Shown here piece after piece: positions 44,137-62,063 of a DNA stretch of 64,000 nucleotides. Origin of the DNA: an uncultured bacterium (GTDB lineage Bacteria; Omnitrophota; Omnitrophia; Omnitrophales; Abzuiibacteriaceae); the NCBI GenBank assembly GCA_964387845.1, contig CAYLXA010000004.1, positions 128,001 to 192,000 on the forward strand, read 5' to 3'. Under the pieces are notes generated by a model, which was not told the origin of the DNA, did no database searches, and saw only the letters and a program-made list of their open reading frames with translations. A program made the translations under genes and the position numbers. Position 1 is the stretch's first letter, and each line of letters opens with the position of its first letter.

Positions 44137-45509
44137 GCAGCCGCAATGAGTTCGCCGATCAAAGTTTTATTCCGGACGGATCTGATTTGGATGTGCTGCC
44201 GTGTGCCGGCCAGCTCTGATGCGCCGTTAAAAACCACGTGGCGCTCGTGCTGGGTCTGGCCAATCATCTGGAGTTCGTCTTTTCGGCTGATGTGACTGAC
44301 CAGTACGCTTTCTCGGGACCCGATCAGCTGCTCGTAATGCTTTTTCGTGATCTCATCCTGAATTGCCAGTAATTCGACATTTCGCTTATTTTTAATATCT
44401 TTCGGCACGTCATCTCTCAATTTATAAGCCGGGGTTCCGGGGCGCGGTGAATATTGAAAAATAAAAGCGCCGTCAAACTCGATTTCACGCACTGCGCGTT
44501 TGGTGGCTTCAAAATCTTCTTCCGTTTCACCGCAAAAGCCGACAATAATGTCGGTTGTGAGTGAAATATCGGGAACAAGTTCGCGAAAGCGGTCGACTTT
44601 GGCTTTAAATTCCGCGTACCGGTGAAGCCGTTTCATTCGTTTTAAAATTGCGTCCGAACCCGATTGCAGGGGAAGGTGAAAGCGTCTAGAAACTTTTTTG
44701 CAGTCGCGGATGGCTTGAAACAGTTCTTCGTGCGCATCTTCCGGATGCGACGTTGTGAATGAAATCAATTCGATTCCTTCAATATCATTCAGCATGCGGA
44801 GAAGTTCGGGAAAAGCCGGACTGTTCGGCAAATCCTTGCCGTATGAATTCACGTTTTGTCCCAGGAGCGTAATTTGTTTATAGCCTTGTTCGGCAAGCCG
44901 GACCGCTTCTCTATAAACCTCCCGAGCTGGCATCGATACTTCAGGCCCGCGCGTTGTTGGGACTATGCAGTAAGTGCAAACTTTGTTGCATCCTGTCATG
45001 ATCGGAAGCCAGGCATTGATTCCATCGCCATATTTGGTGAGCTCCGAATATTCAATCCCCAGACCTTCTTTTTTGATGCGCGCGGTTTGTTGGCGGGTTT
45101 TTCGGACAGTTTCCACGATTTCCGGAAGCTCTTTAATATTCCGAGTTCCGCAGAGAAAATCAAGATGAGGAAATTTTTTAAATAACTTTTCTTTATGTTC
45201 TTCCGCCATGCAGCCCATGAGGCCGACGATCAGATCGGGTTTTTGTTCGGCTTTAAAATCGCGGAGCTCATAGAGATGGCCATAAACGCGGGTTTCCGCA
45301 TGTTCGCGAACCGAGCAGGTATTTAATATGAAGACATCCGAATCTTGATAGGGGTTGGCAGTTTCTTTAATGATCTGAAAGCCGGCATTCTCAAGCGTGC
45401 CCAAGGCGACGTCAGAATCATAAAAGTTCATCTGACATCCGAAGGTCTTAATAAACACGACTGGTTTTTTATCAGTAGATGGCCGTGTTTCTTGCTTTTC
45501 CTGTTCCAA
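44133..45509 (-). CDS. miaB: tRNA-2-methylthio-N6-dimethylallyladenosine synthase
   Basis: An MTTase N-terminal cluster (FGCQMN), a radical-SAM CxxxCxxC (CTYC) and a TRAM domain. It uses an apparent TTG start at 45507-45509 with a strong SD (aaggagg) 5 nt upstream, and that start lies inside the recombinase ORF. Confidence 0.85.
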   Translation of the reverse strand: MEQEKQETRPSTDKKPVVFIKTFGCQMNFYDSDVALGTLENAGFQIIKETANPYQDSDVFILNTCSVREHAETRVYGHLYELRDFKAEQKPDLIVGLMGCMAEEHKEKLFKKFPHLDFLCGTRNIKELPEIVETVRKTRQQTARIKKEGLGIEYSELTKYGDGINAWLPIMTGCNKVCTYCIVPTTRGPEVSMPAREVYREAVRLAEQGYKQITLLGQNVNSYGKDLPNSPAFPELLRMLNDIEGIELISFTTSHPEDAHEELFQAIRDCKKVSRRFHLPLQSGSDAILKRMKRLHRYAEFKAKVDRFRELVPDISLTTDIIVGFCGETEEDFEATKRAVREIEFDGAFIFQYSPRPGTPAYKLRDDVPKDIKNKRNVELLAIQDEITKKHYEQLIGSRESVLVSHISRKDELQMIGQTQHERHVVFNGASELAGTRQHIQIRSVRNKTLIGELIAAA

Positions 45510-47149
45510 GTTTCCTCCTTTCTGCCGGTTTTCTCGTTTGCTCTTCGGTTGGCTAACGCATTTTGATACATGGAGCGAAAAGGTTCATAAAGTTCAAACT
45601 TTTCGATTGATCGATTTTCCACTGGAAGCCTTTTAAAAATGAGCATTAAGAATTCTTTTCGGCTGGCCGGATGTAGATTTTCTTTTACAGATTGCGTAGA
45701 TTTTACGATTTCTTGCGCTTTTTTGACATATTCTTTGGACTTTTCTTTTTCGACTAGCCGGAGTTCCATGCGTTCGACCTTAATGCGAAGTTCACCCTCC
45801 TCATTGCGCAGTTTTTGCATTTTTTGCTTGAAGATGCCGCGATTAATGGTTCCTTCCAAATAAACATCCGTGAGGTCGCTTTGTTTTTGAAGGTATGCTT
45901 GCAAATCTTTTCGCATTGCTTCAAGTTCGTACGTTGCTTCACCAGTCGCTCTATTTCGATATTGGTCTGCTACAAGATTCCGAAGCCGTTCCGTAGTAAC
46001 TTCCTTAGCCGAAAAAAGGACATCCAGAACTTCAAAAACCTGTGATTCCAATATCTCTGACCGCACGTCACCGTTGTGGCATTTGATATTGTAAAGGGCT
46101 CTGCCAGAACAGCGGTAATAAGGTCTCTTTTCGCCGGTTCTGTGATTTTTAACATTGGAAATGCCATTGTAGCGGTTTCCGCACTTGGCGCAGGTGATTA
46201 CACCGGATAGCGGATAGTCGCGGACGCGTCGACGCACAAATCGTCCTTTTCGATTTTGGTCTAAGAGTGCTTGAACTTGATAAAAAATTTCTTCAGAAAC
46301 AATCGCCCAATGATTTCCAGTGGCTTCGATGATTTTGGACGGGTCATTCTTGACATAGCGATAACCATGAAGCGTTTTTTGTTTTCGGTCGTAATGGTGA
46401 GCATTCCAAACTAGTTTTCCAATGTAAATCTTATTTCGAAGCATCTTCCGAACGAGAGAACTATTGAACAAACCGCCTGATCGAGTTTTAATTTCACGTT
46501 TGTAAAGTTCACCGCCAATTTTCTGTGTGGAAAGGCCTGAAAGATACTTCTCGAAGATTTCTTTGACGAGTTTTGCTTCTTCTTCAACGATTTCAAGACG
46601 TTTTGTCGTTTTATCGTAATGGTAACCGTAAGGTGCATAACGGGCGCCTTGCCAATGTCCTTCTTGCACGCCGCGGACCATTCCTGGGAACACGCGTTCA
46701 ATAATCCGGTTTCGCTCAAATTCGGCAAAACTTCCAAGCTGTTGAAGCATGAGTTTGCCGGAGCTTGAGGTAGTATCATAGGGCTCTGTTGCGGATTTAA
46801 ATTCAATATCAAGATTTTCGAGTTCATCCAAGAGGTTCAAAAGGTCTTTCAGACGGCGGCTAAAACGGTCTAGTTTATAAACTAAAACTAAATCAAACTT
46901 CCTTGCTCTCGCGTCTTCCAAAAGTTGATTGAGAGCAGGGCGGTCAAGTGAATAACCGCTATAACCATCGTCTTCGTAAATTTTATTCTTGTCGTCCAGA
47001 AAATGAATTTGCCAATCTTGCTTCTTAGAAAATTCGATAAGAGAATCTCGCTGGATATCCAGAGAATAGCCTTCCCGCGCCTGATCTTCTGTGCTCACGC
47101 GCGTGTAAAGGGCTACTTGGATTTGTTTTTTATCGCTTGAATTGTTCAT
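45428..47149 (-). CDS. large serine recombinase (serine integrase)
   Basis: An N-terminal resolvase catalytic domain (YTRVSTEDQ, with the nucleophile Ser), a recombinase domain, a Cys-rich zinc-ribbon region (CAKCG...YRCSGR...CHN) and a coiled-coil C-terminal region. 573 aa. Confidence 0.9.
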   Translation of the reverse strand: MNNSSDKKQIQVALYTRVSTEDQAREGYSLDIQRDSLIEFSKKQDWQIHFLDDKNKIYEDDGYSGYSLDRPALNQLLEDARARKFDLVLVYKLDRFSRRLKDLLNLLDELENLDIEFKSATEPYDTTSSSGKLMLQQLGSFAEFERNRIIERVFPGMVRGVQEGHWQGARYAPYGYHYDKTTKRLEIVEEEAKLVKEIFEKYLSGLSTQKIGGELYKREIKTRSGGLFNSSLVRKMLRNKIYIGKLVWNAHHYDRKQKTLHGYRYVKNDPSKIIEATGNHWAIVSEEIFYQVQALLDQNRKGRFVRRRVRDYPLSGVITCAKCGNRYNGISNVKNHRTGEKRPYYRCSGRALYNIKCHNGDVRSEILESQVFEVLDVLFSAKEVTTERLRNLVADQYRNRATGEATYELEAMRKDLQAYLQKQSDLTDVYLEGTINRGIFKQKMQKLRNEEGELRIKVERMELRLVEKEKSKEYVKKAQEIVKSTQSVKENLHPASRKEFLMLIFKRLPVENRSIEKFELYEPFRSMYQNALANRRANEKTGRKEETWNRKSKKHGHLLIKNQSCLLRPSDVR

Positions 47150-48379: not shown

Positions 48380-48399
48380 TGACGAGCACTAGATACAAA

Positions 48400-48472: not shown

Positions 48473-48584
48473 AAAATGCGCCGAATTGCGAGGCAGTGAA
48501 AGCGCTTACAAAAAATTGCTTAGGGAAACTCAATTTCCCAACCACTTTCCCCAACCAAAAGTGCACCAAAGAACAAAAACACCT

Positions 48585-49030
48585 CTCATTGATGTTGTGC
48601 AAAAACAGGCATTTCGTAACAAAGAAATCCAAAATTCCAGATAAAAAATATTTTTCATGCCCCTTCACCTAAAAAACCAACAAGTCCCCCCATATATAGG
48701 GGGCCAAAAATGGGGGTCTCGCAGAGATTTGCGAAAATATTTTCAATTCCACCTAAAAATAGTTTGAATCCCAACCCTCCGTTCTCAATCACCTAAAACC
48801 CTAAAAGTCCTCCCATTGATGTTGTGCAAAAACAGCACTTTCGACGACAAGAAAATTCAATTAACAGATGGAAAAATATTTTTTATACATTTTTTCTGAG
48901 ACTTTTTAGGTAATCACTTAAAAAAACAACAAGTGCTCCCTATATAAAGGTGCAAAAACAGGGTGTTTTGGTAGAAAATCACGAAAATAGTTTGATCTTC
49001 ACCTAAAATTTTAATTTTAGTCTTTTTTTC
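48585..49030. repeat. two imperfect tandem repeats of about 226 bp containing reiterated cacctaaaa motifs and a 17-bp perfect palindrome (cccccatatataggggg, 48686-48702)
   Basis: The units begin at about 48585 and 48811 (attgatgttgtgcaaaaacag at 48588 and 48814). The cacctaaaa motifs start at about 48666, 48749, 48789 and 48999. Confidence 0.7.
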
Positions 49031-49282
49031 CTGTTTTACATTTGGATCGTAATTTCTCACATAGTGTGTGGCTTAGGCCTATTTCCTCTTGAGTCTTCAC
49101 GATTTTATTGTGAAAGCTCGTGGTTTCGATACCACCAGCTCATACCACCATGTTTAATTTGCTCATTGACCTGGAAAATGATTGAAGATTGAGAGTCGTT
49201 TAACCGCAATCTGGACACCGATCAAGCTTTTGACCTATCACATGGTCAGTCACTTCGGTGCTGGACAGGTTACTAATTTTTT

Positions 49283-49471
49283 TCAACGTTTTTTGCGTTT
49301 CTTTCTCGGCTCTCTCACTGCGGCTGATTCGATCTTCTGAAGGAGATCTTCATTTTCCTGTTCAACTTGTTTCAGCGCCTCACGTAGCCTGAGCATTTCC
49401 TCGATAAGATCATCTTTGGATTCTTCTTGAAGAAAAATTCTATCCCCGTGAAATGGGTTGGCGGCCGTCAT
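49283..49471 (-). CDS. small hypothetical protein (62 aa; coiled-coil with basic C-terminal tail RKKRKKR)
   Basis: An ORF with no convincing SD. Its position at the distal end of the element suggests a small DNA-binding or partition-like protein, but this is weak. Confidence 0.3.
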   Translation of the reverse strand: MTAANPFHGDRIFLQEESKDDLIEEMLRLREALKQVEQENEDLLQKIESAAVREPRKKRKKR

Positions 49472-49573
49472 CGCAGATGTAGGGTCTTAGAAAAAGAATT
49501 AAGATGATTTGTTAGGATTCGCTAAAGGATTGCGTGCGATAAAAACCTGTTGCTTTTTATGATCAGGAGTGTT

Positions 49574-49594
49574 ATATTTCGTATAACGAAATAT
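49574..49594 (+). promoter_or_regulatory. putative MarR operator: 9-bp inverted repeat atatttcgt-ata-acgaaatat followed by ttcgtataat (-10-like) upstream of marR
   Basis: The palindrome overlaps a TATAAT-like box 20-30 nt upstream of the MarR start. Confidence 0.4.
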
Positions 49595-49622
49595 TCGTAT
49601 AATAAAATATATGGGGAGATTT

Positions 49623-50102
49623 ATGAAATTGTTTACCCTGGAAGCTTTTGGAGACCGGATGATTGAGCTGTTCCCGCAGCTGATGCGGGAGATCTCGCAG
49701 TATGAGACTAATTATCTGACCGAAGGAGTGATTACGGTTCCGCAGGTCTGGGTCTTGGATTTTCTGAAAGATGGAAAGTCTGCCCAGATGAACGAACTCG
49801 CCGCGTACATGAAACTTAAGTTTTCGTCCGCGACAGGCCTTGTTGACCGCATGGTCAAGCACCAGCTTGTAAAGCGCGTCCGGAGCGAGACCGACCGGCG
49901 GGTCGTGCTAATATCCATCACTTCCAAAGGTAAGAAAATTTTGCAGGAAATATACAAGCAAAAGCGCAAGGGAATTATGCGATTATTCGGCCGGTTAGGT
50001 TCCGAAGACCGCATGCAGTATATGGAACTTATCGAAAAGCTTGTAAAAGATCTTTCCTCCACCCCTTCTCAGGAAAACCGTTATGCCGACCGTCATCATT
50101 GA
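49623..50102 (+). CDS. MarR family transcriptional regulator
   Basis: A winged-helix MarR fold pattern. The start is at the second ATG (MKLF), which has a ggggaga SD. Confidence 0.8.
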   Translation: MKLFTLEAFGDRMIELFPQLMREISQYETNYLTEGVITVPQVWVLDFLKDGKSAQMNELAAYMKLKFSSATGLVDRMVKHQLVKRVRSETDRRVVLISITSKGKKILQEIYKQKRKGIMRLFGRLGSEDRMQYMELIEKLVKDLSSTPSQENRYADRHH

Positions 50103-50307
50103 AGGCCCCCGATTAAGTTTGGAGGGTAAAAAGGAACTGGTTCAGAAACTGGCCCCGCTCGCGGCTCATGTTTATGACTGGAAAGTTGAAGATGTGGTCG
50201 TGATCATCCGAGAGAATGCGGATGAAAATGTGGCTCGCGGAGGCGTTTTGTTATCGGAGCGGAAAGATCGTGGAATGCAGGCTGTCCATAAAAAGGGGCC
50301 TCAATGA
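50083..50307 (+). CDS. tautomerase superfamily protein (4-oxalocrotonate tautomerase-like, Pro-1)
   Basis: It begins MPTVIIEG and is about 74 aa. It is translationally coupled, overlapping marR by 20 nt and tolC by 4 nt. Confidence 0.6.
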   Translation: MPTVIIEGPRLSLEGKKELVQKLAPLAAHVYDWKVEDVVVIIRENADENVARGGVLLSERKDRGMQAVHKKGPQ

Positions 50308-51740
50308 AAGACTGTCAGAAAAACTATATTGGAGCAGGCTTTTTGAAAGGACAAAAGCGTTTCTTGGGAGCTTTTTTGTGCTTGAGCGTGGCGGGTTTTT
50401 TTATGCACTGTGAAGCGTTTGCCCAAAACGGCTCCTTATCTGCACCGGGCCCCGGGGATTTGAAGGCCGCTCAGAACGTCGATAGTCAAACCCCCTCCTT
50501 GACGCTTGAAGAGTCGTTTCAGCTTGCTTTCAAAAATCATGAAGAGGTTCAAATCGCAATTTTTAGTGAGAAAGAGCAGGGGCTCTTGCCCTGGCGCGCT
50601 TTTTCCGCAATTCTCCCTACCGTGACCGGAAGCGCGGGCGTTACCTATCCAAAAGAGCAAATTGCGTTTGCACAATCTGTTATTGTTGCAGACCCCCTGA
50701 AGGAGGCTGACATTACCGTCAGGCAGCCGTTATTTAACGGACAGACGCTCCCGGCCTACATACGCGCAAGAAACCTTTCGGAAGCCTCATCCGAAAGCAA
50801 ATATTTCGAAATTCGCCGCGTTTTGTTCAATGTGGCACAGGCCTATTTTTCGCTTCTGCAAAATCAAAAGCTGGTTGATGTTGCCGAGGAATCTCTGAGG
50901 CTGGCACAGGAGCAGCTTAGGATTTTGTCTGAACGTTACGAGGCGGGACAAGCACCCAAAAATGATTTTCTGCGCGCCCAGGTTGAAGTGAGCCGTGCCG
51001 AGAGAACTTTAACGGAAAGCCGTAATAACCGGGAACTTGCGGGCAGTACGCTGGCCAGCTTCATTGGTATGCCGGTTCCGGAAATCAAAGAGGCCCGTTT
51101 GGTTGAACCTGAATCTGACCCAACCGTCAGACTCGAAGAAAATGATGAGCTTCAAAAATATATCGAGATTGCCGGAAATCATCGCAATGACCTCAGGAGC
51201 TTAAAAGAACAAGTAGATGCCAAAAAATGGGAAGTCAGGCAGAAATGGGCTGCGTTTCTTCCCAATGCCGACTTGATATTTGAACAATCCTGGCTCGAAC
51301 CCGAAAGTTTTTCGCGGCAGAACAATTTCTGGACAGCCGGATTTCAGTTTACATTTCCTTTTTTTGAAAAAGGAGAGCGAGCGCTAAATGTGAGTGAACA
51401 AAGATACGAACTCAAACAGCTTCGGCTGCGACTCGAAAGGCTTCGAAAAGACATTGCGCTTCAGGTCGAAGAAGCCTGGCGGGCGGCACAGACCACCAAA
51501 GTCAATCTGAACGCGGTTCTCAAAGAAAAAGAGCTTTCCCAGGAAAATTACGATGTGATTCTCAGCCGCTATGAATCCGGACAATCCTCCAGTCTTGATG
51601 TGATCGATGCTTTTGCGGAGCTCACCAATGCAAAAACCATCGCCGTAACGGAACAATATGCTTATCAGCTTTCTCTTCTTAACCTTTTGAAGCAGGCCGG
51701 ACTGTTCGGGCAATCTTATATAGAGCCGCAAAGAAAATGA
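50304..51740 (+). CDS. TolC-family outer membrane efflux protein
   Basis: A signal peptide followed by two OEP repeats. 478 aa. Confidence 0.85.
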   Translation: MKDCQKNYIGAGFLKGQKRFLGAFLCLSVAGFFMHCEAFAQNGSLSAPGPGDLKAAQNVDSQTPSLTLEESFQLAFKNHEEVQIAIFSEKEQGLLPWRAFSAILPTVTGSAGVTYPKEQIAFAQSVIVADPLKEADITVRQPLFNGQTLPAYIRARNLSEASSESKYFEIRRVLFNVAQAYFSLLQNQKLVDVAEESLRLAQEQLRILSERYEAGQAPKNDFLRAQVEVSRAERTLTESRNNRELAGSTLASFIGMPVPEIKEARLVEPESDPTVRLEENDELQKYIEIAGNHRNDLRSLKEQVDAKKWEVRQKWAAFLPNADLIFEQSWLEPESFSRQNNFWTAGFQFTFPFFEKGERALNVSEQRYELKQLRLRLERLRKDIALQVEEAWRAAQTTKVNLNAVLKEKELSQENYDVILSRYESGQSSSLDVIDAFAELTNAKTIAVTEQYAYQLSLLNLLKQAGLFGQSYIEPQRK

Positions 51741-52657
51741 GGAGTCTTTTTGTGAAAAGAAAGTTAAAAAATCAAACAAATGTTTCCATTTTGATTTTTC
51801 CATTGCTATGTTTAGTTTTGGCTTCTGGATGCGGTAAACACAATGGGAAAATGCCGCCAGGCGTGCCTGTCGATGCGATTAAAGTGCAACCGGAAAAGTT
51901 AGAACATATTTTAAAAGTTGTCGGCAATATCAAGGCGCAGGATGAAGCAACTTTGTATTCTAAGGTAGCCGGAAAGCTGATCAAATATGTGGTGAAAGAA
52001 GGGCAGGCGGTAAAAAAAGACGACACCGTAGCTTTGCTCGACCGTGATGAAGTCGGATTCAAATACCAGGAGGCTCCGGTAAAAACGACGCTTGATGGGG
52101 TCGTGGGACGTACTTATTTGGATGCGGGTGCGGATATCCAGTTGAGTACGCCTGTAGCGCTTGTTGTGGATATGCGTCAAGTGCGTATTTTGATACAGGT
52201 GCCCGAACAAGATTTGCCCGATGTGAAGGAAGACCAAACCGCCCATGTTTATGCGGATGCTTTTCCAAAAGATATATTCGAAGGAAAAGTCATTAAAGTG
52301 AGCCCAATTGTGGATCTTCAAACCCGAACAGCGCCCGTTGAAATCGAAGTTCCTAACCCCGAATACCGGTTGAAGCCCGGAATGTTTGCACGTGTTGAAC
52401 TCGTCACGCGAGTTTTCGAGAATGCCGTGATGATTCCTGAGGCGGCCATTGCTTACGAGAGCGGCAAGCCCTCTGTTTTCGTTGTCAAAGACGGTAAAGC
52501 ACAAAGGCGGAGTATTGAGACCGGCATGCGGGAAATTGGAAGAGTTCAAATTACCAAAGGGCTCGAGGGCGGCGAAGTTGTGGTGACAGCCGGCCATCTG
52601 AAGATCCGCGACGGCTCCGAAGTTGCGATCGCTCAGGAACAAACCAACTCTGGGTAA
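51737..52657 (+). CDS. efflux RND transporter periplasmic adaptor subunit
   Basis: A lipobox (LASGCG) and an HlyD/MFP biotinyl-lipoyl plus beta-barrel pattern. Confidence 0.85.
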   Translation: MRSLFVKRKLKNQTNVSILIFPLLCLVLASGCGKHNGKMPPGVPVDAIKVQPEKLEHILKVVGNIKAQDEATLYSKVAGKLIKYVVKEGQAVKKDDTVALLDRDEVGFKYQEAPVKTTLDGVVGRTYLDAGADIQLSTPVALVVDMRQVRILIQVPEQDLPDVKEDQTAHVYADAFPKDIFEGKVIKVSPIVDLQTRTAPVEIEVPNPEYRLKPGMFARVELVTRVFENAVMIPEAAIAYESGKPSVFVVKDGKAQRRSIETGMREIGRVQITKGLEGGEVVVTAGHLKIRDGSEVAIAQEQTNSG

Positions 52658-52707
52658 TTTAAACTTTATTTCTATAGACTACGCCATAGATAAATTAAGG
52701 GAAATAC

Positions 52708-55700
52708 ATGCTATCGAAATTCTTTCTTGACCGGCCGGTTTTTGCGTGGGTGATTGCCATCATTTTGATGGTCTTGGGCTTACTGGCTATTTACCAGCTT
52801 CCGATATCGCAATATCCCCCCATTGCCCCGCCTTCCATTGCCATCACGAGTTTTTATCCGGGCGCTTCAGCCGAAACCGTAGAAAATACCATAACCCAGA
52901 TCATCGAACAAAAAATGACGGGCTTCGAAGAGATGTTGTACATGTCTGCCACAAGCGATTCGGCTGGCGCCTCACGCATAGAACTCACGTTCAAGCCAGG
53001 AACAGATCCGGATTTGGCCTGGGCCAAGGTGCAGAATAAACTCCAGCTGGCTATGGCAAGCCTTCCTGAAGTGGTGCAGCGTTCGGGGGTGACGGTAAGC
53101 AAATCGACGAGGAATTATCTCATCATTATCGGCCTTGTCTCGGAAGATGGCAGTATGGATGACCATGCGCTGCGTGACTATGCTCAATCAAATCTTGAAA
53201 AGGTGCTGGCGCGCGTGCCGGGAGTCGGAGAGGTTGAGACTTTCGGGACCCAGTATGCGATGCGCATCTGGATCAATCCCGATAAGCTGATAGAATACGG
53301 TCTTACGGTTCAAGACGTTGTCCATGCTTTGGATACCTATAACGTAGAAGTGTCGGCCGGTCAGTTCGGCGGACTTCCAGCTGTTGAAGGCCAGCGGCTT
53401 AACGTCTCCATCATTATTCAAAATTTGCTGCAGACCCCCGAGGAATTTGCCTCCATTCCGGTCCGAACCAATCCGGACGGATCGATTATTCGCATCAGGG
53501 ATGTCGGCGGAACTGAACTCGGCACCGAGTTCTACGATATCGTCAATGTATATAACGGCAAACCGGCTGCCGCTATGGCGGTAAGGCAGGCCCCTGGCGC
53601 AAACGCGCTCGATACAGCAGAGGCAGTCAAGGCGAAACTCGAAGAGATGAGCCGCTATTTTCCGCATGGCATGAAGGTGGTTTATCCTTATGACACAACT
53701 CCCTTTGTTGAGGTGGCGATTCATGAGGTTGTCAAAACTCTCTTCGAGGCCATCTTGCTGGTGTTCCTTGTTATGTATCTGTTTATGGGAAATATTCGGG
53801 CAACGTTAATTCCCACGATTGCCGTGCCGGTCGTCCTTTTGGGCACTTTCGCTGTACTGGGACTCTTCGGGTTTTCGATCAACATGCTGACGATGTTCGC
53901 CATGGTCTTGGCAATCGGGCTCCTTGTAGATGATGCGATCGTAGTGGTTGAAAACGTAGAACGCCTGATGTCGGAGGAAGGTCTTTCGCCACGGGATGCC
54001 ACCGCCAAATCAATGGAGCAGATCACAAGCGCTCTGATCGGTATCGGCTTGGTGCTTTCCGCCGTTTTTGGTCCCATGGCTTTTTTCCCGGGTTCAACGG
54101 GAGTCATTTACCGCCAGTTCTCCGTGACGATTATTGCCTCGATGATGCTCTCGGTGGTAGTCGCCTTGATTCTGACACCGGTTCTCTGCGCAGCGCTGCT
54201 GAGACCGGTGCCAAAAGGGCATGAACCGGCAGAAAATGCGATTTGGTTCCTACGTCCCTTTTTTATGAAATTCGACCGCTTTTTCTTCCGGATTCGTGAA
54301 CGCTACATCGCGATTGTAGACCACTCCTTGGCGCATAAACTGCGTTATATCATACTGTACACAGGCATCATAGGCGTGATCGCATTCCTCTTTTTCCGTC
54401 TTCCCACCGGCTATTTACCGGACGAGGACCAGGGAATCCTGCTTGCGCAGATTGTAATGCCGACCGGCTCGACTTTGGAACAAACGAAAGCGGTTACGGA
54501 CAGGGTCCAACAACATTTTGAGCAAAATGAAAAAGATGCCGTGGAATCTTCTATGGCAATAGTGGGTAACGGTTTTTCGGGCAGAGCGCAGAATAACGCG
54601 ATGGTCTTTGTCAAACTCAAGGACTGGAAAGAGCGCGGGCGCAAAGAATTATCGGCAAAGGCCGTGGCGGGAAGAGCAATGGGAGCATTTTCAGCGATTC
54701 GCGAGGCCATTGCTTTTGTTTTTCCTCCGCCTGCCGTCCTTGAACTTGGCTTTGGCCGAGGCTTTGACTTCCAGTTAATCGACAGAGGCGGATTGGGACA
54801 TGAGGCTTTGATGAATGCCCGGAATCAACTGCTCGGCATGGCAGCTCAGGATAAGCGGCTTACGAAAGTGCGCCCGAACGGTATGGAGGATGTCCCTCAA
54901 TTTCGAATCGATGTGGATTGGGAAAAAGCGGGCATGTTGGGAATTCCGATCGCTTCGATCCATAGCACACTCTCGGCAGCTTTTGGCGGGGCCTATGTCA
55001 ATGATTTCATCCAAGGCGGGCGCGTGAAACGCGTGTACATTCAAGCGGATACTCCTTACCGCATGCTGCCGGATGATCTCGAAAAAATTTATGTCCGCAA
55101 CATTTCAGGGCAGATGGTTCCCTTTGCATCTTTTGCATCGACGCGCTGGGCCTCGGGCGCTCCCCGCCTCGAACGCTTTAACGGATTTTCATCCATGAAC
55201 ATCTGGGGAGAGCCTGCGCCAGGCAAAAGTTCCGGTGAGGCGATGCAGGCCATGGAAGAACTTTCCGGAAAACTGCCCAAAGGATTCGGCTATGATTGGG
55301 CAGGTCTGTCGTATCAGGAAAGGATGGCCACGGCTCAGGGACCAATTCTTTACGCGTTCTCCATTCTCGTGATCTTCCTTTGCGTAGCGGCCTTATATGA
55401 GAGTTGGAGTATTCCGTTCGTGAATCTCCTGATGCTGCCGCTCGGAGTATTCGGCGCTTTATTTGCGACTTCCCTGAGAGGCCTGACTAACGACGTTTAC
55501 TTCCAGATTGGTTTCCTTACAACCATGGGACTTTCTACAAAAAACGCCATTCTTATCATTCAGTTCATCAAAGAGCAGATGCAGCAGGGGCTCGGCCTGG
55601 TGGAGGCGACTCTCGCTGCTGTAAAGATCCGCTTCCGTCCGGTTATCATGACATCTCTCGCGTTTTTCTTTGGGACGCTGCCGCTCGCTCTGGCTTCCGG

Positions 55701-55872
55701 GGCAGGCGCGGGCGCGATGAACGCCATCGGCACAGCCGTGACAGGGGGTATGATCTCGGCAACCTTTATTGATCTGGTGTTTATTCCATTATTTTTCGTT
55801 TTGATATCCCGTTTCTTTGGGCGCAAAACAAAAAATACTCAAACTACCGGCGAAGGAACAATTAAGTCGTGA
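52708..55872 (+). CDS. efflux RND transporter permease (AcrB/HAE1 family)
   Basis: A 1054-aa protein with twelve TM segments and two large periplasmic loops, and AcrB family motifs. Confidence 0.9.
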   Translation: MLSKFFLDRPVFAWVIAIILMVLGLLAIYQLPISQYPPIAPPSIAITSFYPGASAETVENTITQIIEQKMTGFEEMLYMSATSDSAGASRIELTFKPGTDPDLAWAKVQNKLQLAMASLPEVVQRSGVTVSKSTRNYLIIIGLVSEDGSMDDHALRDYAQSNLEKVLARVPGVGEVETFGTQYAMRIWINPDKLIEYGLTVQDVVHALDTYNVEVSAGQFGGLPAVEGQRLNVSIIIQNLLQTPEEFASIPVRTNPDGSIIRIRDVGGTELGTEFYDIVNVYNGKPAAAMAVRQAPGANALDTAEAVKAKLEEMSRYFPHGMKVVYPYDTTPFVEVAIHEVVKTLFEAILLVFLVMYLFMGNIRATLIPTIAVPVVLLGTFAVLGLFGFSINMLTMFAMVLAIGLLVDDAIVVVENVERLMSEEGLSPRDATAKSMEQITSALIGIGLVLSAVFGPMAFFPGSTGVIYRQFSVTIIASMMLSVVVALILTPVLCAALLRPVPKGHEPAENAIWFLRPFFMKFDRFFFRIRERYIAIVDHSLAHKLRYIILYTGIIGVIAFLFFRLPTGYLPDEDQGILLAQIVMPTGSTLEQTKAVTDRVQQHFEQNEKDAVESSMAIVGNGFSGRAQNNAMVFVKLKDWKERGRKELSAKAVAGRAMGAFSAIREAIAFVFPPPAVLELGFGRGFDFQLIDRGGLGHEALMNARNQLLGMAAQDKRLTKVRPNGMEDVPQFRIDVDWEKAGMLGIPIASIHSTLSAAFGGAYVNDFIQGGRVKRVYIQADTPYRMLPDDLEKIYVRNISGQMVPFASFASTRWASGAPRLERFNGFSSMNIWGEPAPGKSSGEAMQAMEELSGKLPKGFGYDWAGLSYQERMATAQGPILYAFSILVIFLCVAALYESWSIPFVNLLMLPLGVFGALFATSLRGLTNDVYFQIGFLTTMGLSTKNAILIIQFIKEQMQQGLGLVEATLAAVKIRFRPVIMTSLAFFFGTLPLALASGAGAGAMNAIGTAVTGGMISATFIDLVFIPLFFVLISRFFGRKTKNTQTTGEGTIKS

Positions 55873-56351
55873 AAGCCAGATATGCCAATCAGCATGATTT
55901 TCAAGCCTTTGAAGAAAACCTGACGTTCTTCATGCGTTATTTGTTGGCGCACGGGTTGAAAATACTGGCAAGCTACAAGATCAACCTTGCCCAGTATTTT
56001 ATTCTCTTCGAATTGAGTCATGACACGGCATTGCCCATGTTCTTCTTTGCTGAACATTACCCTCTTTCTAAACCTTCGTTCACAAATAATATCGACAGGC
56101 TTGTTTCACGAGGACTCGTGACACGTATGCGAGGGACCGAGGATAGACGGACGATTTTAGTTTCCATTACGACGAGTGGAAAAAAGCTTATGGGCAACCT
56201 TCAAAGAACGCGGCTCAAATTCTTGCAAAGCTACTTTAATCGTCTGCCCCCGGCCAAGCAGCATGCTTTGACCGAACTTTTAGCGGCTCTCCGGCCGGTT
56301 CATGAAGAATCATGCGCAGGAAAAAGTATTAAAAATATTCTGAAAGAATAA
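55869..56351 (+). CDS. MarR family transcriptional regulator
   Basis: A MarR wHTH pattern. It overlaps the RND gene stop by 4 nt. Confidence 0.75.
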   Translation: MKARYANQHDFQAFEENLTFFMRYLLAHGLKILASYKINLAQYFILFELSHDTALPMFFFAEHYPLSKPSFTNNIDRLVSRGLVTRMRGTEDRRTILVSITTSGKKLMGNLQRTRLKFLQSYFNRLPPAKQHALTELLAALRPVHEESCAGKSIKNILKE

Positions 56352-56356
56352 AACTT

Positions 56357-56587
56357 ATGATTACATGGATCGGTCTTTGCGCTGGAGAAATTTGGAATTG
56401 TTTGGACATGCATGGTGGTAAAGCAGAATTTCATATTCTGTTTTCGGAAATCAATGCGCCACAGGAAACCATTTTGATGGCAATGGGATGGCTTGCCAGA
56501 GAAGGCTACATCATCATTGACGGATCTTTTCCTTCAGGCGTGATCAAACTTAAAGAGCATCCACCCATGCCACTTGCAGAAAAATGA
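56357..56587 (+). CDS. winged helix-turn-helix domain protein (DUF2582-like)
   Basis: A 76-aa protein carrying the MAMGWLAREGYI motif characteristic of DUF2582 wHTH proteins. Confidence 0.55.
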   Translation: MITWIGLCAGEIWNCLDMHGGKAEFHILFSEINAPQETILMAMGWLAREGYIIIDGSFPSGVIKLKEHPPMPLAEK

Positions 56588-56642
56588 TGCCCAATATCAT
56601 GAGAGACTGGCAAATCGTTTGAGGCTGTGAAAGGGGAAGATT

Positions 56643-57032
56643 ATGGGACAAACAAAAAATCAATATATTCCCGGCGTTTGCAATATCGGCACGGCGGAAA
56701 TTAAGAAACGCAAACAAGCGGGATGGATAGGGCTTGCCGCAACTATTGTCCTATGGGGACTCCTTATTTACCTTAATGTTGCACCAGCCTGGCGATTACT
56801 TCTCTTTTTCCCGGCGATGATGTCGGCAATAGGATTTCTCCAGGCCTACATGCATTTCTGCGCCTATTACGGTTTCACTGCTCTTTTTAATTATGGCGAT
56901 TTCGGCAAAAAAGATACTATCCAGCAAGCTGAATTTCGCGTCCAAGATAGACGCAAGGCGTGGCAAATTGTCATTTACTCTGTACTTATCGGTATAGCGG
57001 TCGCTCTTCTGTCATACATGTTTCAGTTATAG
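56643..57032 (+). CDS. hypothetical membrane protein (about three TM segments, two Cys)
   Basis: An SD (aaggggaag) upstream and hydrophobic segments in the sequence. Confidence 0.5.
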   Translation: MGQTKNQYIPGVCNIGTAEIKKRKQAGWIGLAATIVLWGLLIYLNVAPAWRLLLFFPAMMSAIGFLQAYMHFCAYYGFTALFNYGDFGKKDTIQQAEFRVQDRRKAWQIVIYSVLIGIAVALLSYMFQL

Positions 57033-57218
57033 ACCTCTATTGAGCGAAACCAAAAAAAGAGCAAGGAGGGCAGCAACCGCATGAAAATACTCGTTCTTAT
57101 CTTCCGCGCGCTGAAAGAATTTTCTAAAGCGCGGCATAAGGAGGACGAGCAGGTGTCCATCCGGATCTTCGCTGTTCCATGCGAGCAGCTACTCTAAAAT
57201 CAAGGAGGTAAAGAAACC

Positions 57219-57611
57219 ATGCGATACGTAGTGTTATTGGGGAGAATATTCTATTCGTCCATCTTCGTCATGGCCAACCTGTTCCATTTCTCCGGCCAAG
57301 CCATCACGCACGCGGCCGACGAAGGGGTTCCCATGGCGGGGGTCTTGGTTCCCCTGTCGGGGATTATCGGCTTGGCGGGAGGATTCAGCATCCTGCTGGG
57401 CTACAAGGCCAAGTGGGGCGCCTGGCTCCTGGTGCTGTTTCTCGTGCCCGTCACCCTCATGATGCACAAGTTCTGGGCGGTTGCCGACCCGCAGGCCGCC
57501 ATGATGCAACAGGTTATGTTCATGAAGAATGTCTCCATGCTCGGAGCGGCTCTTTTGATCAGCCATTTCGGGGCCGGACCTCTCAGCCTGGACGCCCGCA
57601 AGACAGGTTGA
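57219..57611 (+). CDS. DoxX family membrane protein
   Basis: A DoxX pattern across four TM segments and a strong SD (aaggagg). The gene is conspicuously GC-rich (about 60%) with GC3-rich codons, unlike its neighbours. Confidence 0.75.
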   Translation: MRYVVLLGRIFYSSIFVMANLFHFSGQAITHAADEGVPMAGVLVPLSGIIGLAGGFSILLGYKAKWGAWLLVLFLVPVTLMMHKFWAVADPQAAMMQQVMFMKNVSMLGAALLISHFGAGPLSLDARKTG

Positions 57612-57840
57612 GTTAAAATCCGTAGGCCGCCTTTATTATCTCAACCGCCTGTCGGGTATAGGAAAGCCAAGGGTCAGCCGAACGTCTTAATATGTAGTTT
57701 TAGCGGCTTTGTAGACATGACGGAGATTATACCAAAAGGCGGCCGAGAATAGAAGCCTCTCAACATATTGAAATACAATGACTTAGGAAAAGATTGATTT
57801 TGAGTTTAATCTGTGGTAAATCTGTGTCCCTCGGTGATAT

Positions 57841-58587
57841 ATGCCCAAACAAAAGAAAGTACCCAATCGCGATAAGCTGTTTGACGAAAAGCGCAGCTTG
57901 ATCGAAAACTTCAATTTCGGAAAAGCCACGGCGCAAGTCTTTGATGACATGTTGAACCGGTCCGTGCCTTTTTACGGTGAGATGCAGCGGATGATGGCGG
58001 AGATGGCCGGTGATTTCGCGGTGGAAGGCACAAATCTCTATGATTTGGGCTGCTCGACCTGCACGACATTTCTTCATATTGACCAGAGCGTCAATCCGGG
58101 CGTGACGTTTGTCGGTGTAGATTCTTCTCAGGAAATGCTCGATAAAGCCAAGCAAAAGTTGAAAGCGGCGGGGTTTAAACGCGATTACGAACTCGTTTGC
58201 GCGGATATCAATAAAGGCGTTGAAATCAATAACGCATCGGTTGTCATCATGAACCTGACGCTTCAGTTTGTCCGCCCGCTTTACCGCGAGAAATTGATTC
58301 AAAGCATCGCGCGCGGTCTAAATGACGGCGGCTGCCTGATCTTGATTGAAAAAGTACTTTCCGAATATTCCACGCTGAACCGTCTCTTCATTAAATATTA
58401 TTACGATATGAAGAAACGGAACGGTTACTCGGATCTTGAAATTGCGCAAAAGCGGGAAGCGCTGGAGAATGTCTTGATCCCGTACCATTTTGATGAAAAC
58501 AGGGAACTCTTGCTCAAAAACGGTTTTAAAGGCTGTGACATGTTCTTCCGCTGGTATAACTTTTGCGGCATGGTTGCGCTCAAATAA
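57841..58587 (+). CDS. cmoA: carboxy-S-adenosyl-L-methionine synthase
   Basis: Strongly CmoA-like: RSVPFY, YDLGCS, NGYSDLEIAQKR..LENV and C-terminal FNF...VALK blocks that match E. coli CmoA. Confidence 0.85.
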   Translation: MPKQKKVPNRDKLFDEKRSLIENFNFGKATAQVFDDMLNRSVPFYGEMQRMMAEMAGDFAVEGTNLYDLGCSTCTTFLHIDQSVNPGVTFVGVDSSQEMLDKAKQKLKAAGFKRDYELVCADINKGVEINNASVVIMNLTLQFVRPLYREKLIQSIARGLNDGGCLILIEKVLSEYSTLNRLFIKYYYDMKKRNGYSDLEIAQKREALENVLIPYHFDENRELLLKNGFKGCDMFFRWYNFCGMVALK

Positions 58588-58590
58588 TTC

Positions 58591-59346
58591 ATGCCGGCTC
58601 CGAGCGCGAAAGTCCCCAATCCGGTTTTGCTCAATTCCGGAAATTTCTTTTTTAAATTCCGCAATTTTATTTTCCCAGCTGTTTTTGTTTCTTTGTTTTT
58701 ATTTACACGCCCGGCGCTTTTCCTCAACGACCCGGAACTTGATCGTTTAACCGTTCTGCTGGGAGTTGTGATTGCCTTCGCCGGCCAAATTTTCCGGTTT
58801 ACAGTAATCGGCTTTGCCTACATTAAGCGCGGCGGCAAGGAAGGGAAGGTCTACGCGGATGATTTGGTGATCCAGGGGTTTTATGCGCACGTGCGCAATC
58901 CAATGTATGTCGGAAACTTTCTGATCACTGTCGGAATCGGCATTGTTTACGGTTCTCCCTGGATTTATTTTATCGTGATTCCGTTTTTCACATTTGTCTA
59001 TTTATCGATTGTGACGGCCGAAGAAAATTATCTTCGGCAAAAATTCGGCGCTCAATATGAGCATTACGAAAAGACGGTGAACCGGTTCGTCCCGAATTTT
59101 CAGGGAATTCAAAACACGCTCAAAGATTTTAAATATGATTGGAAAAAGGCGCTCCGGAAAGAATATGGAACGGTTTTTGGAACCATGGCGGGGATCCTCT
59201 TGATTCTGATCTGGAAATACTACGTTGTGTTTGGCTGGAAGGCGGGAAAGGCCACGATCGTGAATTTCGGCCTTCTATTAATTCCCGCCGTCTTATTTTA
59301 TGCGATTGTGCGGTTTTTGAAATTAACCAAACGGCTTCAGTCTTAA
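58591..59346 (+). CDS. isoprenylcysteine carboxyl methyltransferase / phospholipid methyltransferase family (ICMT/PEMT) membrane methyltransferase
   Basis: A polytopic membrane protein with RNPMYVG and the C-terminal EE..L...FG..Y..Y SAM-binding motif. It starts 4 nt after the cmoA stop. Confidence 0.75.
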   Translation: MPAPSAKVPNPVLLNSGNFFFKFRNFIFPAVFVSLFLFTRPALFLNDPELDRLTVLLGVVIAFAGQIFRFTVIGFAYIKRGGKEGKVYADDLVIQGFYAHVRNPMYVGNFLITVGIGIVYGSPWIYFIVIPFFTFVYLSIVTAEENYLRQKFGAQYEHYEKTVNRFVPNFQGIQNTLKDFKYDWKKALRKEYGTVFGTMAGILLILIWKYYVVFGWKAGKATIVNFGLLLIPAVLFYAIVRFLKLTKRLQS

Positions 59347-62063
59347 TCTTTTCCTGCGGTTGCGATTTGCAGTTTCGCGGAATCCAAATACCGCGCAATG
59401 ACTTGACGAACATCTTTAGTCTTCAGCCGTTCAATCTTTTGAATAAACCCTTCTAATTCTTTGAGCGGAATACCCGCTTCATGCAAAGTTAAAATCTGAT
59501 CGGCCATGCCGGAAGAAGAAGCGAGTCCGATCCGGTAAAGCCCGATGATTTCCGTTTTTTTGCCCGCCAAGTCAGCTTCCGGGATTTCATCTTTTGAAAA
59601 TTGATTTAAAACATCCCGAATCGCCCGGACGGCTTCTTGCTTTTTTTCGGGCCGTACTGCCGCGCTGATTTTCCAATAACCATTTAAACGGCGGTCAAAA
59701 CCAGCCAGAGACGAACGAATTTGATAGGCAAGGCCTAATTCCTGCCTGATTTTTTGGAACAGAAGACTTGAAGAGCTGCCGCCCAAGATGAAATTGGCAA
59801 CTTGGAGGGCGGGGAAATCAGCATGGGCGCGCGTTATCGGAACGCCGGCGCCGAATGCCAGTGCAGTGTCGGCGCTTTCGGGAACAATCAGTGCTTGCTC
59901 GGCTTGTGATTCAGGAAAATCAAGTTTAGACGGCGAAATTTTGTTAGAGGTATTCGGCCAATCGCGTAGAGATTTTTGAATTGTTTCTTTTATTTTTTTA
60001 GAATCCAAGTCACCGGCCACTACGATATTTAATTGGTTTCGGCCAAAATGCTCTGCGTGAAATTTCCGGACATCATTGAGCGTTGCTTTCTCCAGCCAAT
60101 CGAGTTTTTCCTGAAGGGCAGTTTCGTGAAGCGGATAACTTCTAGGATAAATCATGCGCATAAGAGCGGCAGCCGCCTGCGTGGCGGCGGAAGACTTTTC
60201 GTTGATGAGGGAAGTTTTGAGCTGTGATTTAACGCGGCTGAAATCCTCCGGGCGGAAGCTTGGCTTGCGTAATTGCTCAAACATCAGCTCGAAAGTTTTT
60301 TCAGTTTCCGCTGTCAAAAATTTTGCTTCAAACGTAAATGCCTCTGAATCGACACCAAAAGAAATCTTGGAACCCATTCTTTCAAGCGCTTTGGACAGCC
60401 CGCCCGGTTCAAAGCCTTCGGTATTTTCAGACAACAGCAATGCGGTCAGTTCCGCCAGAACAGGGTTCGGCGAATAAAACCGGCCGGCGCCGGCAATGGA
60501 TCCCGCAGCATGCGCAATGCCACGGACACCGGTTTCTGCCAGAATAACCGTCGCGTTGTGGATGGTGTATGTCTGCGGCGAGGCAATCGGCTCACGGCGC
60601 AAGGCTTGGGCGTAATGTTTTTGTTGCTTGGTTTTCTTTCCGGATGTTTCAGTTTCTTTGGATAACTCATCCACAACAGGCGGTGCTGATTGCGATTTTT
60701 CTACCGTACTGTCTGTTTCAGTTGCGGGCGTCAGGCAGCCGATGGTGGTTTGGCCGGGAATGAGATATTGGTTTGCAACGCGAAGAATATCATCGGTTGT
60801 GACCGACTCCATCTTGTTTGTATTCGAAAAATAATTGGCCCAATCGCCGCTTCCGACCGCGTTAATCATTTGGCTGATGAAATCAAACGGACTGTCTTGC
60901 GCAAAAAGCCGATCGGAAATCGCCTGTCTTTTTGCAATTTCCAGTTCATCAGCCGTGACGCCGGAGCGTTTTAAATTTTGATAAGTCTGCAAGATCATTT
61001 TTTCTACGGATTCACAGGTCGCGTAAGGGCCCAGCCGCAGAGACATAATGAATAATCCCGGTTCGCGCAGCTCCGAAGTTTCGGATTCGATTTCAAGCGC
61101 CATGCCGGTTTGGACTAATTGCTGATGCAGCCGGCTGGAAGTGCCTCCGGCCAGTATTCTGCTCATCAAATGAAGCGCCGGAATGTCTGGATGTGTCCCT
61201 TCCGGTGATTTTTGAGCAATGTAAAGCCGCTTTTCATTACCGGATTTTTGAATGGCGACCCTGTTTTCGCGAGTCTGCGGCGGTTCTGCTTGTAAATTGC
61301 TTGCCGTGTGAGTGCGCGGCACAGAACCATAATATTTTTGAATGAACGATAAAATTTGACTTTCATCAAAGTCGCCGATCACGGCAATCGTTAAATTATT
61401 AGGCTGATAATGCCGGCCGTAATACCGTTTTAACGTACCGGTATCCATATTTTCAATTGATTCCGGGTAACCAATAATGGCGTAGCGGTACGGATGATTT
61501 TTAAAAGCCGCATTCCAGACAGTCTTTTCCAATTCCATTTTCGCGTTATTCGTTAAGATATTGTACTCGCTCGTGATGATGTCGATCTCGCGCTCAATGG
61601 CTTCATCGGAAAATAGGACATGGCGCATGCGTTCGGATTCAATTTCAAGTGCGAGTTCAACATGCTCGGTTGGGATGATTTCGTAGTAGGTTGTAACATC
61701 GCTGGATGTTTGGGCGTTAATCAAAGCGCCGGCCCGGTGCAGGGAATCCGGAATAGAAGTTCCGGATGCTTCATTGAATTTTTTCGTGCCTCGGAATGTG
61801 AGGTGCTCCAAAAAATGAGCGGTCCCGGCTCTTTGCGGTTCATCCTGCGCAGCGCCTGATCGGTAAATCGAAGCAACAGCGGCCAAACCGGGAAAGGGCG
61901 CGTGGGCCGTGAGCACGCGAAGCCCGTTGGATTTTAGCTCGTACTCCGTGATTCCGTTCAGTTCCTGAATCTTTTTGAAATCACGGCTCGGAAAATACGG
62001 CCAAAGCCACACAAACACAGCAATCAATAGAGCCCCAAGGGCCAAAATCCTGAATCTGTTCAT
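59343..62063 (-). CDS. M16 family zinc peptidase (double insulinase-like, pitrilysin family)
   Basis: An N-terminal signal/TM segment, an HxxEH zinc motif (HFLEHLTFRGT) and two M16 units. 906 aa. Confidence 0.85.
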   Translation of the reverse strand: MNRFRILALGALLIAVFVWLWPYFPSRDFKKIQELNGITEYELKSNGLRVLTAHAPFPGLAAVASIYRSGAAQDEPQRAGTAHFLEHLTFRGTKKFNEASGTSIPDSLHRAGALINAQTSSDVTTYYEIIPTEHVELALEIESERMRHVLFSDEAIEREIDIITSEYNILTNNAKMELEKTVWNAAFKNHPYRYAIIGYPESIENMDTGTLKRYYGRHYQPNNLTIAVIGDFDESQILSFIQKYYGSVPRTHTASNLQAEPPQTRENRVAIQKSGNEKRLYIAQKSPEGTHPDIPALHLMSRILAGGTSSRLHQQLVQTGMALEIESETSELREPGLFIMSLRLGPYATCESVEKMILQTYQNLKRSGVTADELEIAKRQAISDRLFAQDSPFDFISQMINAVGSGDWANYFSNTNKMESVTTDDILRVANQYLIPGQTTIGCLTPATETDSTVEKSQSAPPVVDELSKETETSGKKTKQQKHYAQALRREPIASPQTYTIHNATVILAETGVRGIAHAAGSIAGAGRFYSPNPVLAELTALLLSENTEGFEPGGLSKALERMGSKISFGVDSEAFTFEAKFLTAETEKTFELMFEQLRKPSFRPEDFSRVKSQLKTSLINEKSSAATQAAAALMRMIYPRSYPLHETALQEKLDWLEKATLNDVRKFHAEHFGRNQLNIVVAGDLDSKKIKETIQKSLRDWPNTSNKISPSKLDFPESQAEQALIVPESADTALAFGAGVPITRAHADFPALQVANFILGGSSSSLLFQKIRQELGLAYQIRSSLAGFDRRLNGYWKISAAVRPEKKQEAVRAIRDVLNQFSKDEIPEADLAGKKTEIIGLYRIGLASSSGMADQILTLHEAGIPLKELEGFIQKIERLKTKDVRQVIARYLDSAKLQIATAGKD

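Follow-up and report, generated by a model that had tools for sequence, protein, structure and literature searches.

What is a synthase for carboxy-S-adenosylmethionine (Cx-SAM) doing directly in front of a membrane-embedded relative of the isoprenylcysteine and phospholipid methyltransferases? The question is raised by a stretch of 64,000 nucleotides (nt) from an uncultured bacterium of the Omnitrophota, here called the window, in which a cmoA-family gene (57841..58587, plus strand) is followed by a gene for a polytopic membrane transferase with an ICMT fold and kinship to LmtA (58591..59346, plus strand). The former encodes a protein of 248 amino acids (aa), a predicted prephenate-dependent Cx-SAM synthase of what is called the ICMT-linked clade below, and the latter a protein of 251 aa, which is predicted to be a Cx-SAM-dependent carboxymethyltransferase. 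The cmoA stop codon TAA ends at 58587 and the ATG of the ICMT-like gene begins at 58591, leaving an intergenic spacer of 3 nt (58588..58590, plus strand; TAA-TTC-ATG with the flanking codons). A sequence-only reading of the locus had placed the two genes 4 nt apart. The tight adjacency stands, and the gap of 3 nt counted here differs by counting convention only. Such a spacer is consistent with co-transcription and translational coupling of the pair, and gaps of 0-3 nt or gene overlaps were found in many homologous loci. We consider it probable, at roughly two chances in three, that the two genes form a bicistronic cassette of a Cx-SAM synthase and a membrane carboxymethyltransferase.

The adjacency of cmoA and the ICMT-like gene is far beyond chance. 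An exhaustive profile search recovered 280 representative clusters of the ICMT-like family at E <= 1e-30, and a word-indexed search with the ICMT-like protein gave 303 matches. A scan with the family alignment, in which every GTDB species was represented by one genome, yielded 352 species-level matches, and the best 80 of these 352 loci were examined. They come from more than 12 phyla and include Omnitrophota, Verrucomicrobiota, Planctomycetota, Lentisphaerota, Methylococcales, Desulfobacterota and other 'delta' groups, Nitrospirota (Ca. Manganitrophus), Binatia, Acidobacteriota, KSB1, Calditrichota, Hydrogenedentota, Spirochaetales, Bdellovibrionales and one alphaproteobacterium. A CmoA-like gene adjoins the ICMT-like gene in 77 of the 80 loci, corresponding to 77 of 78 evaluable ones; two of the three exceptions have less than 400 nt of upstream sequence. 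The cmoA gene lies directly upstream and in the same direction in 73 of the 77 pairs, the other four (three from Methylobacter, one from KSB1) being divergent. In the reverse test, which started from the window CmoA and used JGI metagenome contigs, the ICMT-like gene was located directly downstream in 54 of 58 evaluable in-clade loci (54 with a partner, four without, and nine truncated and not evaluable). The distance matrices of CmoA and the ICMT-like protein are correlated (r = 0.63, Mantel p <= 0.001), and the nearest relatives of both window genes are from Omnitrophota. All-against-all clustering of the neighbouring open reading frames (ORFs) in the 80 loci revealed no third conserved gene, the next clusters being antisense or alternate-frame shadows of the pair. 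The sequence-only reading had named the co-occurrence of CmoA with ICMT-family neighbours as a check of its proposal and an adjacency kept in no relative as the outcome that would speak against it. The former is borne out by both counts and the latter clearly fails, with the pairing held across phyla and in both directions of search.

The CmoA identity of the first protein, also part of that reading, was confirmed. The window protein passes the NCBIfam equivalog model TIGR00740 (233 bits, cutoff 193.3), aligns over nearly its full length with E. coli CmoA (35% identity, 241 aligned residues, 2 gaps) and matches 1im8 and 4gek, two solved structures of CmoA, at E ~1e-47. With 164 bits it stays below the cutoff of 285 of the E. 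coli-type model NF011995 (PRK15451). Partner proteins from Omnitrophota, Methylobacter and Methylocaldum reach 234-262 bits with TIGR00740, all above the cutoff. The cofactor contacts of E. coli CmoA were listed by Byrne et al. (2013), who reported that Arg199 forms a salt bridge with the carboxymethyl carboxylate and is conserved across the CmoA family, not in ordinary methyltransferases. The window CmoA retains the contacts Y39, D62, S66, D89, D117, N132, E164 and R199 and carries Ser at the position of N90. Among 76 ICMT-linked CmoAs, Arg199 is present in 74, and Y39, D89, F137 and E164 in every one, while N90 and N132 vary within the clade. Because the clade is approx. 64% identical internally across phyla but only approx. 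37% identical to E. coli CmoA, the ICMT-linked CmoAs represent, as judged from these identities, a distinct and horizontally spread CmoA lineage. The two proteins without Arg199 are the partners from Bdellovibrionales (L032 and L064), which have Ser at position 199 and an identity of 30%. The Bdellovibrionales CmoA-like partner reaches 154.6 bits with TIGR00740 and thus stays under the cutoff. In L064, the upstream ORF joins a prephenate-dehydratase-like part to a true 3-deoxy-D-arabino-heptulosonate 7-phosphate (DAHP) synthase.

The strongest new line of evidence links the membrane protein to the substrate of CmoA. Prephenate, the product of chorismate mutase, is the carboxyl donor in the conversion of SAM to Cx-SAM by CmoA, a reaction that also yields phenylpyruvate. 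Fusions were sought among the 150 best representatives of the ICMT-like family, and five mutually divergent members (P0199, P0187, P0243, P0192 and P0211) were found to consist of an ICMT-like domain and a C-terminal chorismate mutase (CM_2, 56-66 bits, cutoff 27). In all three fusion-gene contexts examined, a CmoA gene directly follows (TIGR00740, 213-220 bits), and the encoded CmoAs retain every cofactor contact including R199. In two loci from Acidobacteriota (L075 and L063), a stand-alone AroQ chorismate mutase gene is located directly upstream of cmoA, a layout that would make chorismate mutase, CmoA and the ICMT-like protein products of one three-gene operon. Moreover, a census of 126 immediate flanking genes contained two DAHP synthases, one chorismate synthase and one 5-enolpyruvylshikimate-3-phosphate synthase, compared with approx. 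0.3 shikimate-pathway genes expected by chance according to a rough estimate. The DAHP_synth_1 neighbours had also been considered as KdsA, which would have been a link to lipopolysaccharide; this was rejected, as they are true DAHP synthases. The fusions and these neighbours tie the membrane enzyme itself, and not only the adjacent CmoA, to prephenate supply. No fusion of CmoA with an ICMT-like protein was found among the representatives inspected, the long members being chorismate mutase fusions, tandem duplications or an OmpA-domain fusion. A single case was observed in which a gene for a FabZ/FabA-like (ApeI-like) dehydratase (positions 3118-3867 of L157) lies downstream of a chorismate mutase fusion and CmoA, a possible hint at a lipid or polyene link.

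What kind of enzyme is the membrane protein? Its best Pfam match is PEMT (PF04191), with 45.1 bits at a cutoff of 25, and ICMT (PF04140) is marginally missed (23.6 bits, cutoff 24). The motifs RNPMYVG (residues 102-108) and EE..L...FG..Y..Y (144-159) are present, and ICMT entries lead the fold matches, in agreement with the earlier assignment to the ICMT/PEMT family. The best NCBIfam match is LmtA_Leptospira (TIGR04571), at 90.2 bits well under the cutoff of 325, with an alignment over the full length (residues 15-249 to model positions 9-247 of 252); ten other representatives of the ICMT-like family score 45-125 bits with this model. By these matches, the closest characterised relative is Leptospira LmtA and not eukaryotic ICMT or PEMT. 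MddA was matched weakly (21 bits, cutoff 270). Sequence matches in the PDB were 5v7p and 4a2n, with an alignment that spans the cofactor-binding core. An AlphaFold model of the protein (predicted local distance difference test, pLDDT, 86.6; predicted TM-score, pTM, 0.83) retrieved the ICMT entries 5vg9, 4a2n and 5v7p as the top three Foldseek matches in the PDB, each at a probability of 1.00 over approx. 170 aligned columns; the match covers the core only, with E values of approx. 0.02-0.03 and TM-scores of 0.31-0.52.

In 130 divergent representatives of the ICMT-like family, R24, R69, R80-G-G, R102-N-P-x-Y and E144-E145 are conserved to at least 96%. According to a review, R173 and R246 of Tribolium ICMT coordinate the substrate carboxylate, R173 being anion-binding. 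R69 (97% conserved) aligns with Tribolium R173. The equivalent of R246 is position 140, which is occupied by I, M, L or V in 130 of 130 representatives and never by Arg. R24 and R80 are near-invariant extra arginines: R24 falls outside the region aligned to solved ICMTs, and R80, which is not conserved in Tribolium ICMT, sits in an invariant I-K-R-G-G-K loop of low model confidence. In characterised transferases, CmoB and CmoX bind the cofactor carboxylate by Lys or Arg, and the CmoB residues have been reported in a review to be conserved in TglF. R24, R69 and R80, all near-invariant, are candidates for a basic residue in contact with the Cx-SAM carboxylate, and one of them would be its likely reader. 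The chorismate mutase fusions would put the C-terminus of the membrane protein into the cytoplasm, and the helix order of the model suggests that the R-G-G loop, the R-N-P-x-Y and EE motifs and a basic C-terminal segment are also on the cytoplasmic side. Of four other long members, P0121 (507 aa), P0260 (604 aa), P0254 (357 aa) and P0246 (442 aa), three contain tandem double ICMT-like domains and one a C-terminal OmpA-type peptidoglycan-binding domain; the OmpA-domain fusion suggests a role in the envelope.

Taken together, these observations suggest the following mechanism. The two genes would constitute a self-contained, horizontally mobile unit. The soluble CmoA-type enzyme would convert SAM and prephenate into Cx-SAM, which would be consumed by the ICMT-fold transferase, an integral membrane protein whose active site would face the cytoplasm. 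The carboxymethyl group (-CH2-COO-) would be moved onto a membrane-embedded nucleophile at the cytoplasmic leaflet, with release of S-adenosylhomocysteine. We infer that Cx-SAM, and not SAM, is the cofactor of the membrane enzyme. The reading as donor synthase and consumer is favoured because the four characterised Cx-SAM cascades share the adjacency of genes for a CmoA homolog and a transferase. In support of a Cx-SAM-linked reaction on a membrane-embedded substrate, which the sequence-only reading had proposed, stand the cross-phylum synteny in both directions, the Arg199 in 74 of 76 partners and the chorismate mutase fusions.

Several points weigh against this assignment. To our knowledge, the use of Cx-SAM by an ICMT-fold enzyme is without precedent, and the closest characterised relatives, LmtA, ICMT, PEMT and MddA, all use plain SAM. 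One ICMT-like gene (L048) is an orphan without a CmoA gene within 10 kb, and the four in-clade CmoAs of the metagenome loci mentioned above have no ICMT-like partner. The loss of Arg199 in the Bdellovibrionales shows that the coupling of CmoA and the ICMT-like protein can be rewired, and the pair of this order may be a rewired version with a different cofactor chemistry. In one rival explanation, the ICMT-like enzyme would be an ordinary SAM methyltransferase that acts after the Cx-SAM chemistry, for instance in a CmoM-like methyl-esterification of a lipid-borne carboxymethyl or carboxyl group, and an unlinked enzyme would carry out the carboxymethyl transfer. Members of the ICMT family are classically carboxyl O-methyltransferases, and CmoM, which methylates the Cx-SAM-derived carboxylate of uridine 5-oxyacetic acid (cmo5U), provides a precedent. 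However, the 80 loci contain no third conserved gene around the pair that could perform the transfer, the two-gene layout and the chorismate mutase fusions most simply correspond to a donor synthase and its consumer, and one of the two carboxylate-binding arginines of Tribolium ICMT, R246, has in its place a residue that is hydrophobic without exception. We consider this explanation unlikely.

It is also conceivable that the CmoA-like clade makes no Cx-SAM at all, being a diverged class-I methyltransferase or the source of another prephenate-derived SAM derivative, and that it and the membrane methyltransferase act one after the other on a single lipid. The identity to characterised CmoAs of only 35-38%, the variability of N90 and N132 within the clade and the missing Arg199 in the Bdellovibrionales partners would fit this idea. 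Since there is next to no variation at Arg199, E164, Y39, D89 and F137, the score exceeds the TIGR00740 cutoff, and the association with genes for chorismate mutase and the shikimate pathway implies specifically that prephenate is used, and hence CmoA chemistry, it appears highly improbable. Finally, the window CmoA could also, or instead, serve tRNA modification. In a strict version of this view, cmoA would supply cmo5U synthesis together with a distant cmoB, and the ICMT-like gene, although conserved beside it, would have a SAM-dependent function of its own that is unrelated to cmoA. The CmoA equivalog model is passed, as noted, and the search for cmoB spans the window and the locus flanks within the genomes concerned. 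A tblastn search of the 64-kb window with E. coli CmoB gave no CmoB-like sequence (best E 0.58), and cmoB was absent from the 80 GTDB loci (flanks of up to 10 kb) and from 70 metagenome loci. Thus, cmoB is never nearby in approx. 150 loci, in contrast to E. coli, where cmoA and cmoB overlap by 4 nt. Moreover, unrelated genes would not be expected to show an adjacency of 93-99% in more than 12 phyla and to have no further neighbour in common, the ICMT-like protein is itself fused to chorismate mutase, and the clade, approx. 37% identical to E. coli CmoA, fails NF011995. We regard a purely tRNA-directed role as very improbable indeed.

On the reading of the pair as a Cx-SAM synthase and a membrane carboxymethyltransferase, which molecule is modified? 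The acceptor would most likely be an anionic envelope lipid that is modified before export. Kinship to LmtA, Arn-like neighbours and the fact that all host phyla are diderms are weak hints in favour of an anionic envelope lipid such as a lipid A phosphate. By analogy with LmtA, a phosphate of lipid A or of 3-deoxy-D-manno-oct-2-ulosonic acid (Kdo)2-lipid A is the leading candidate, albeit a doubtful one against which the odds clearly stand. Genes for ArnT-like GT-C and ArnC-like GT2 glycosyltransferases and for OmpR-type two-component systems or histidine kinases occur in approx. 7 of the 80 loci, and the commonest immediate neighbour is PMT_2, with 5 of 126 flanking genes. The lipid A assignment is weakened by the low scores of these proteins (96-115 bits against a cutoff of 567 for the ArnT-like and 98 against 529 for the ArnC-like ones) and by their presence in less than 10% of the loci. 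Alternatively, the head-group amine of a phospholipid, a lipidated carboxylate, a small thiol or a lipid of the polyprenyl, hopanoid or quinone type might serve as acceptor; an amine, a thiol or another lipid is possible because the superfamily includes N-methylating (PEMT) and S-methylating (MddA) enzymes.

Three loci from Methylobacter (L043, from Methylobacter marinus A45, L044 and L062) contain the pair as divergent genes. Amino-bacteriohopanepolyols designated 'methylcarbamate' have been described from every Methylobacter tested, M. marinus A45 among them, their structures being tentative and derived from mass spectra only (PMC5100885). Both a methylcarbamate and an N-carboxymethyl group add C2H2O2, and the two are isomers. 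That these lipids are related to products of the pair is purely speculative. In Methylocaldum sp. MU1018 (L002 and L003), a gene for an Rce1-like CPBP-family (PF02517) intramembrane protease was observed approx. 630 nt upstream of cmoA. It was seen in that lineage only and recalls the eukaryotic Rce1/ICMT pair of CAAX processing. The in-clade CmoAs of the metagenome loci L117, L118, L119, L122 and L126, which have no ICMT-like partner, are 61-69% identical to the window CmoA. One neighbour in L117 and L119 looks by eye like a CmoI/CmcI-type methyltransferase and one in L126 like a flippase-like fragment; the loci may be glycan clusters and may represent a further use of Cx-SAM.

The surroundings of the window pair help to delimit it. 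In the closest relative (L087/L004), the two proteins are 93% and 84% identical on the amino acid level and the upstream gene is a different one. Nucleotide homology to this relative resumes at 57672, 169 nt before cmoA and right after a segment of 12.2 kb, and delimits a self-contained unit. The non-coding leader that is kept in the relative (57672..57840, plus strand) is a candidate promoter or 5′ untranslated region. It contains no match to the sigma-70 consensus, and a promoter and terminator scan gave no signal above shuffled background. The 12.2-kb segment itself (45447-57671) is missing from the otherwise collinear relative and looks like an integrated island. It starts with a gene for a large serine recombinase (45428..47149, minus strand; Resolvase, Recombinase and Zn_ribbon domains) and carries genes for a MarR regulator, an OEP-MFP-RND efflux system (50304..55872), a second MarR, a DUF2582 winged-helix protein, a small membrane protein and DoxX; the GC content falls to 0.41-0.42 at 46-50 kb. 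DoxX, the small membrane protein, DUF2582, MarR and the RND pump were ruled out as functional context of the pair on account of the island with its serine recombinase and of the relative that lacks them. On the downstream side, the ICMT-like gene and a convergent gene for a 906-aa M16 peptidase (59343..62063, minus strand) overlap by 4 nt at their stops, and no terminator-like site was detected at this junction (59343-59346). An antisense ORF of 180 aa over cmoA (57760-58302, minus strand) is a shadow ORF; its counterparts in 66 loci owe their recurrence solely to the conserved sense strand.

For a long time, Cx-SAM was believed to serve one tRNA modification only; three further roles then came to light, on a peptide, on a nucleotide antibiotic and on phage DNA, and each was a notable discovery. 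Full-text searches of the literature gave no paper on CmoA together with isoprenylcysteine. CmoA is mentioned in none of the papers listed for its combination with ICMT, Ste14, PEMT or phospholipid methyltransferase, and among the Cx-SAM papers listed since 2022 there is none on a lipid or membrane-protein acceptor. Within the literature searched, the cmoA/ICMT-like pairing is undescribed. The sequence-only reading had spoken of an unexplored use of Cx-SAM. This is correct for the membrane-embedded ICMT-fold partner and too broad in so far as TglF, MccB-CTD and phage CmoX are already known as partners other than CmoB. There is a slightly better than even chance, in our estimate, that the window protein is the first integral-membrane, ICMT-fold Cx-SAM carboxymethyltransferase, equipped with a dedicated CmoA and modifying an envelope lipid. 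Examples of its product would be lipid A with a carboxymethyl phosphoester, or a phospholipid, hopanoid or polyprenyl lipid that bears an N- or O-carboxymethyl group.

If this is true, at least 350 species from more than 12 phyla would share a membrane-lipid modification of a class new to bacteria, and Cx-SAM chemistry would reach the biology of lipids and of the envelope. A family whose sole annotation is 'isoprenylcysteine carboxylmethyltransferase family protein' would receive a function. The modification would be detectable by mass as a lipid change of +58.005 Da in groups of environmental importance, among them methanotrophs, Omnitrophota, Planctomycetota, Verrucomicrobiota, Nitrospirota and Desulfobacterota. 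Cx-SAM is already made by E. coli, and the hosts that can be cultured include Methylobacter marinus A45, M. luteus and Methylocaldum; complete genomes with the pair are CP114561.1 (Ca. Manganitrophus), NZ_CP197401.1 (Methylobacter) and CM132195.1 (Methylocaldum). Where methylation introduces a neutral methyl group, the envelope would here acquire a carboxylate handle, which could affect surface charge, resistance to cationic peptides, the interpretation of biomarkers and tools for enzymatic bio-alkylation.

Among known systems, the phospholipid N-methyltransferases of PEMT/PmtA type and the methanethiol S-methyltransferase MddA belong to the same superfamily as the ICMT-like protein and demonstrate that the fold is able to alkylate N and S besides O. 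In contrast to the window family, neither is known with a link to CmoA, and their specific family cutoffs are not reached by the window protein. ICMT/Ste14 (4a2n, 5v7p) shares the fold and the aligned core with R-x-P-x-Y, EE and FG..Y..Y as well as the anion-binding Arg, Tribolium R173 corresponding to R69. It differs in its RHPxY motif, which reads RNPxY here, and in R246, whose equivalent is always hydrophobic; the window family also adds R24, the R80-G-G loop and a C-terminal extension of approx. 80 residues. LmtA, the O-methyltransferase for the 1-phosphate of Kdo2-lipid A in Leptospira interrogans, has the same ICMT-type membrane architecture including the C-terminal extension, and by analogy the window protein would O-alkylate an anionic lipid group at the inner membrane. 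LmtA uses SAM. The window protein is not its ortholog (90 against 325 bits), and its family is defined by the pairing with CmoA.

On the side of the cofactor, the characterised Cx-SAM cascades are CmoA with CmoB, TglE with TglF, MccS with MccB's C-terminal domain (MccB-CTD) and phage CmoA with CmoX, in each of which a CmoA homolog stands beside an enzyme of methyltransferase fold that has turned to carboxymethyl transfer. In the E. coli system, which modifies tRNA to cmo5U34, the CmoA gene is also directly upstream of, and probably co-translated with, the consumer of the cofactor. Whereas CmoB is a soluble Rossmann-fold protein, the window partner is a polytopic ICMT-fold membrane protein without similarity to CmoB; the acceptor is presumably a membrane molecule instead of tRNA, and the window CmoA belongs to a separate clade. 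TglE/TglF (3-thiaglutamate), MccS/MccB-CTD (microcin C of B. amyloliquefaciens) and phage CmoA/CmoX (5-carboxymethylcytosine in DNA) resemble the window pair in that a CmoA homolog acts with a transferase other than CmoB. Unlike the window partner, TglF, MccB-CTD and CmoX have soluble class-I or DNA C5-methyltransferase folds that act on peptide, nucleotide and DNA, and none of them is membrane-embedded or of ICMT fold. With its ICMT-like enzyme, the pair from Omnitrophota would add a fifth partner type to CmoB, TglF, MccB and phage CmoX, and the first that is embedded in the membrane.

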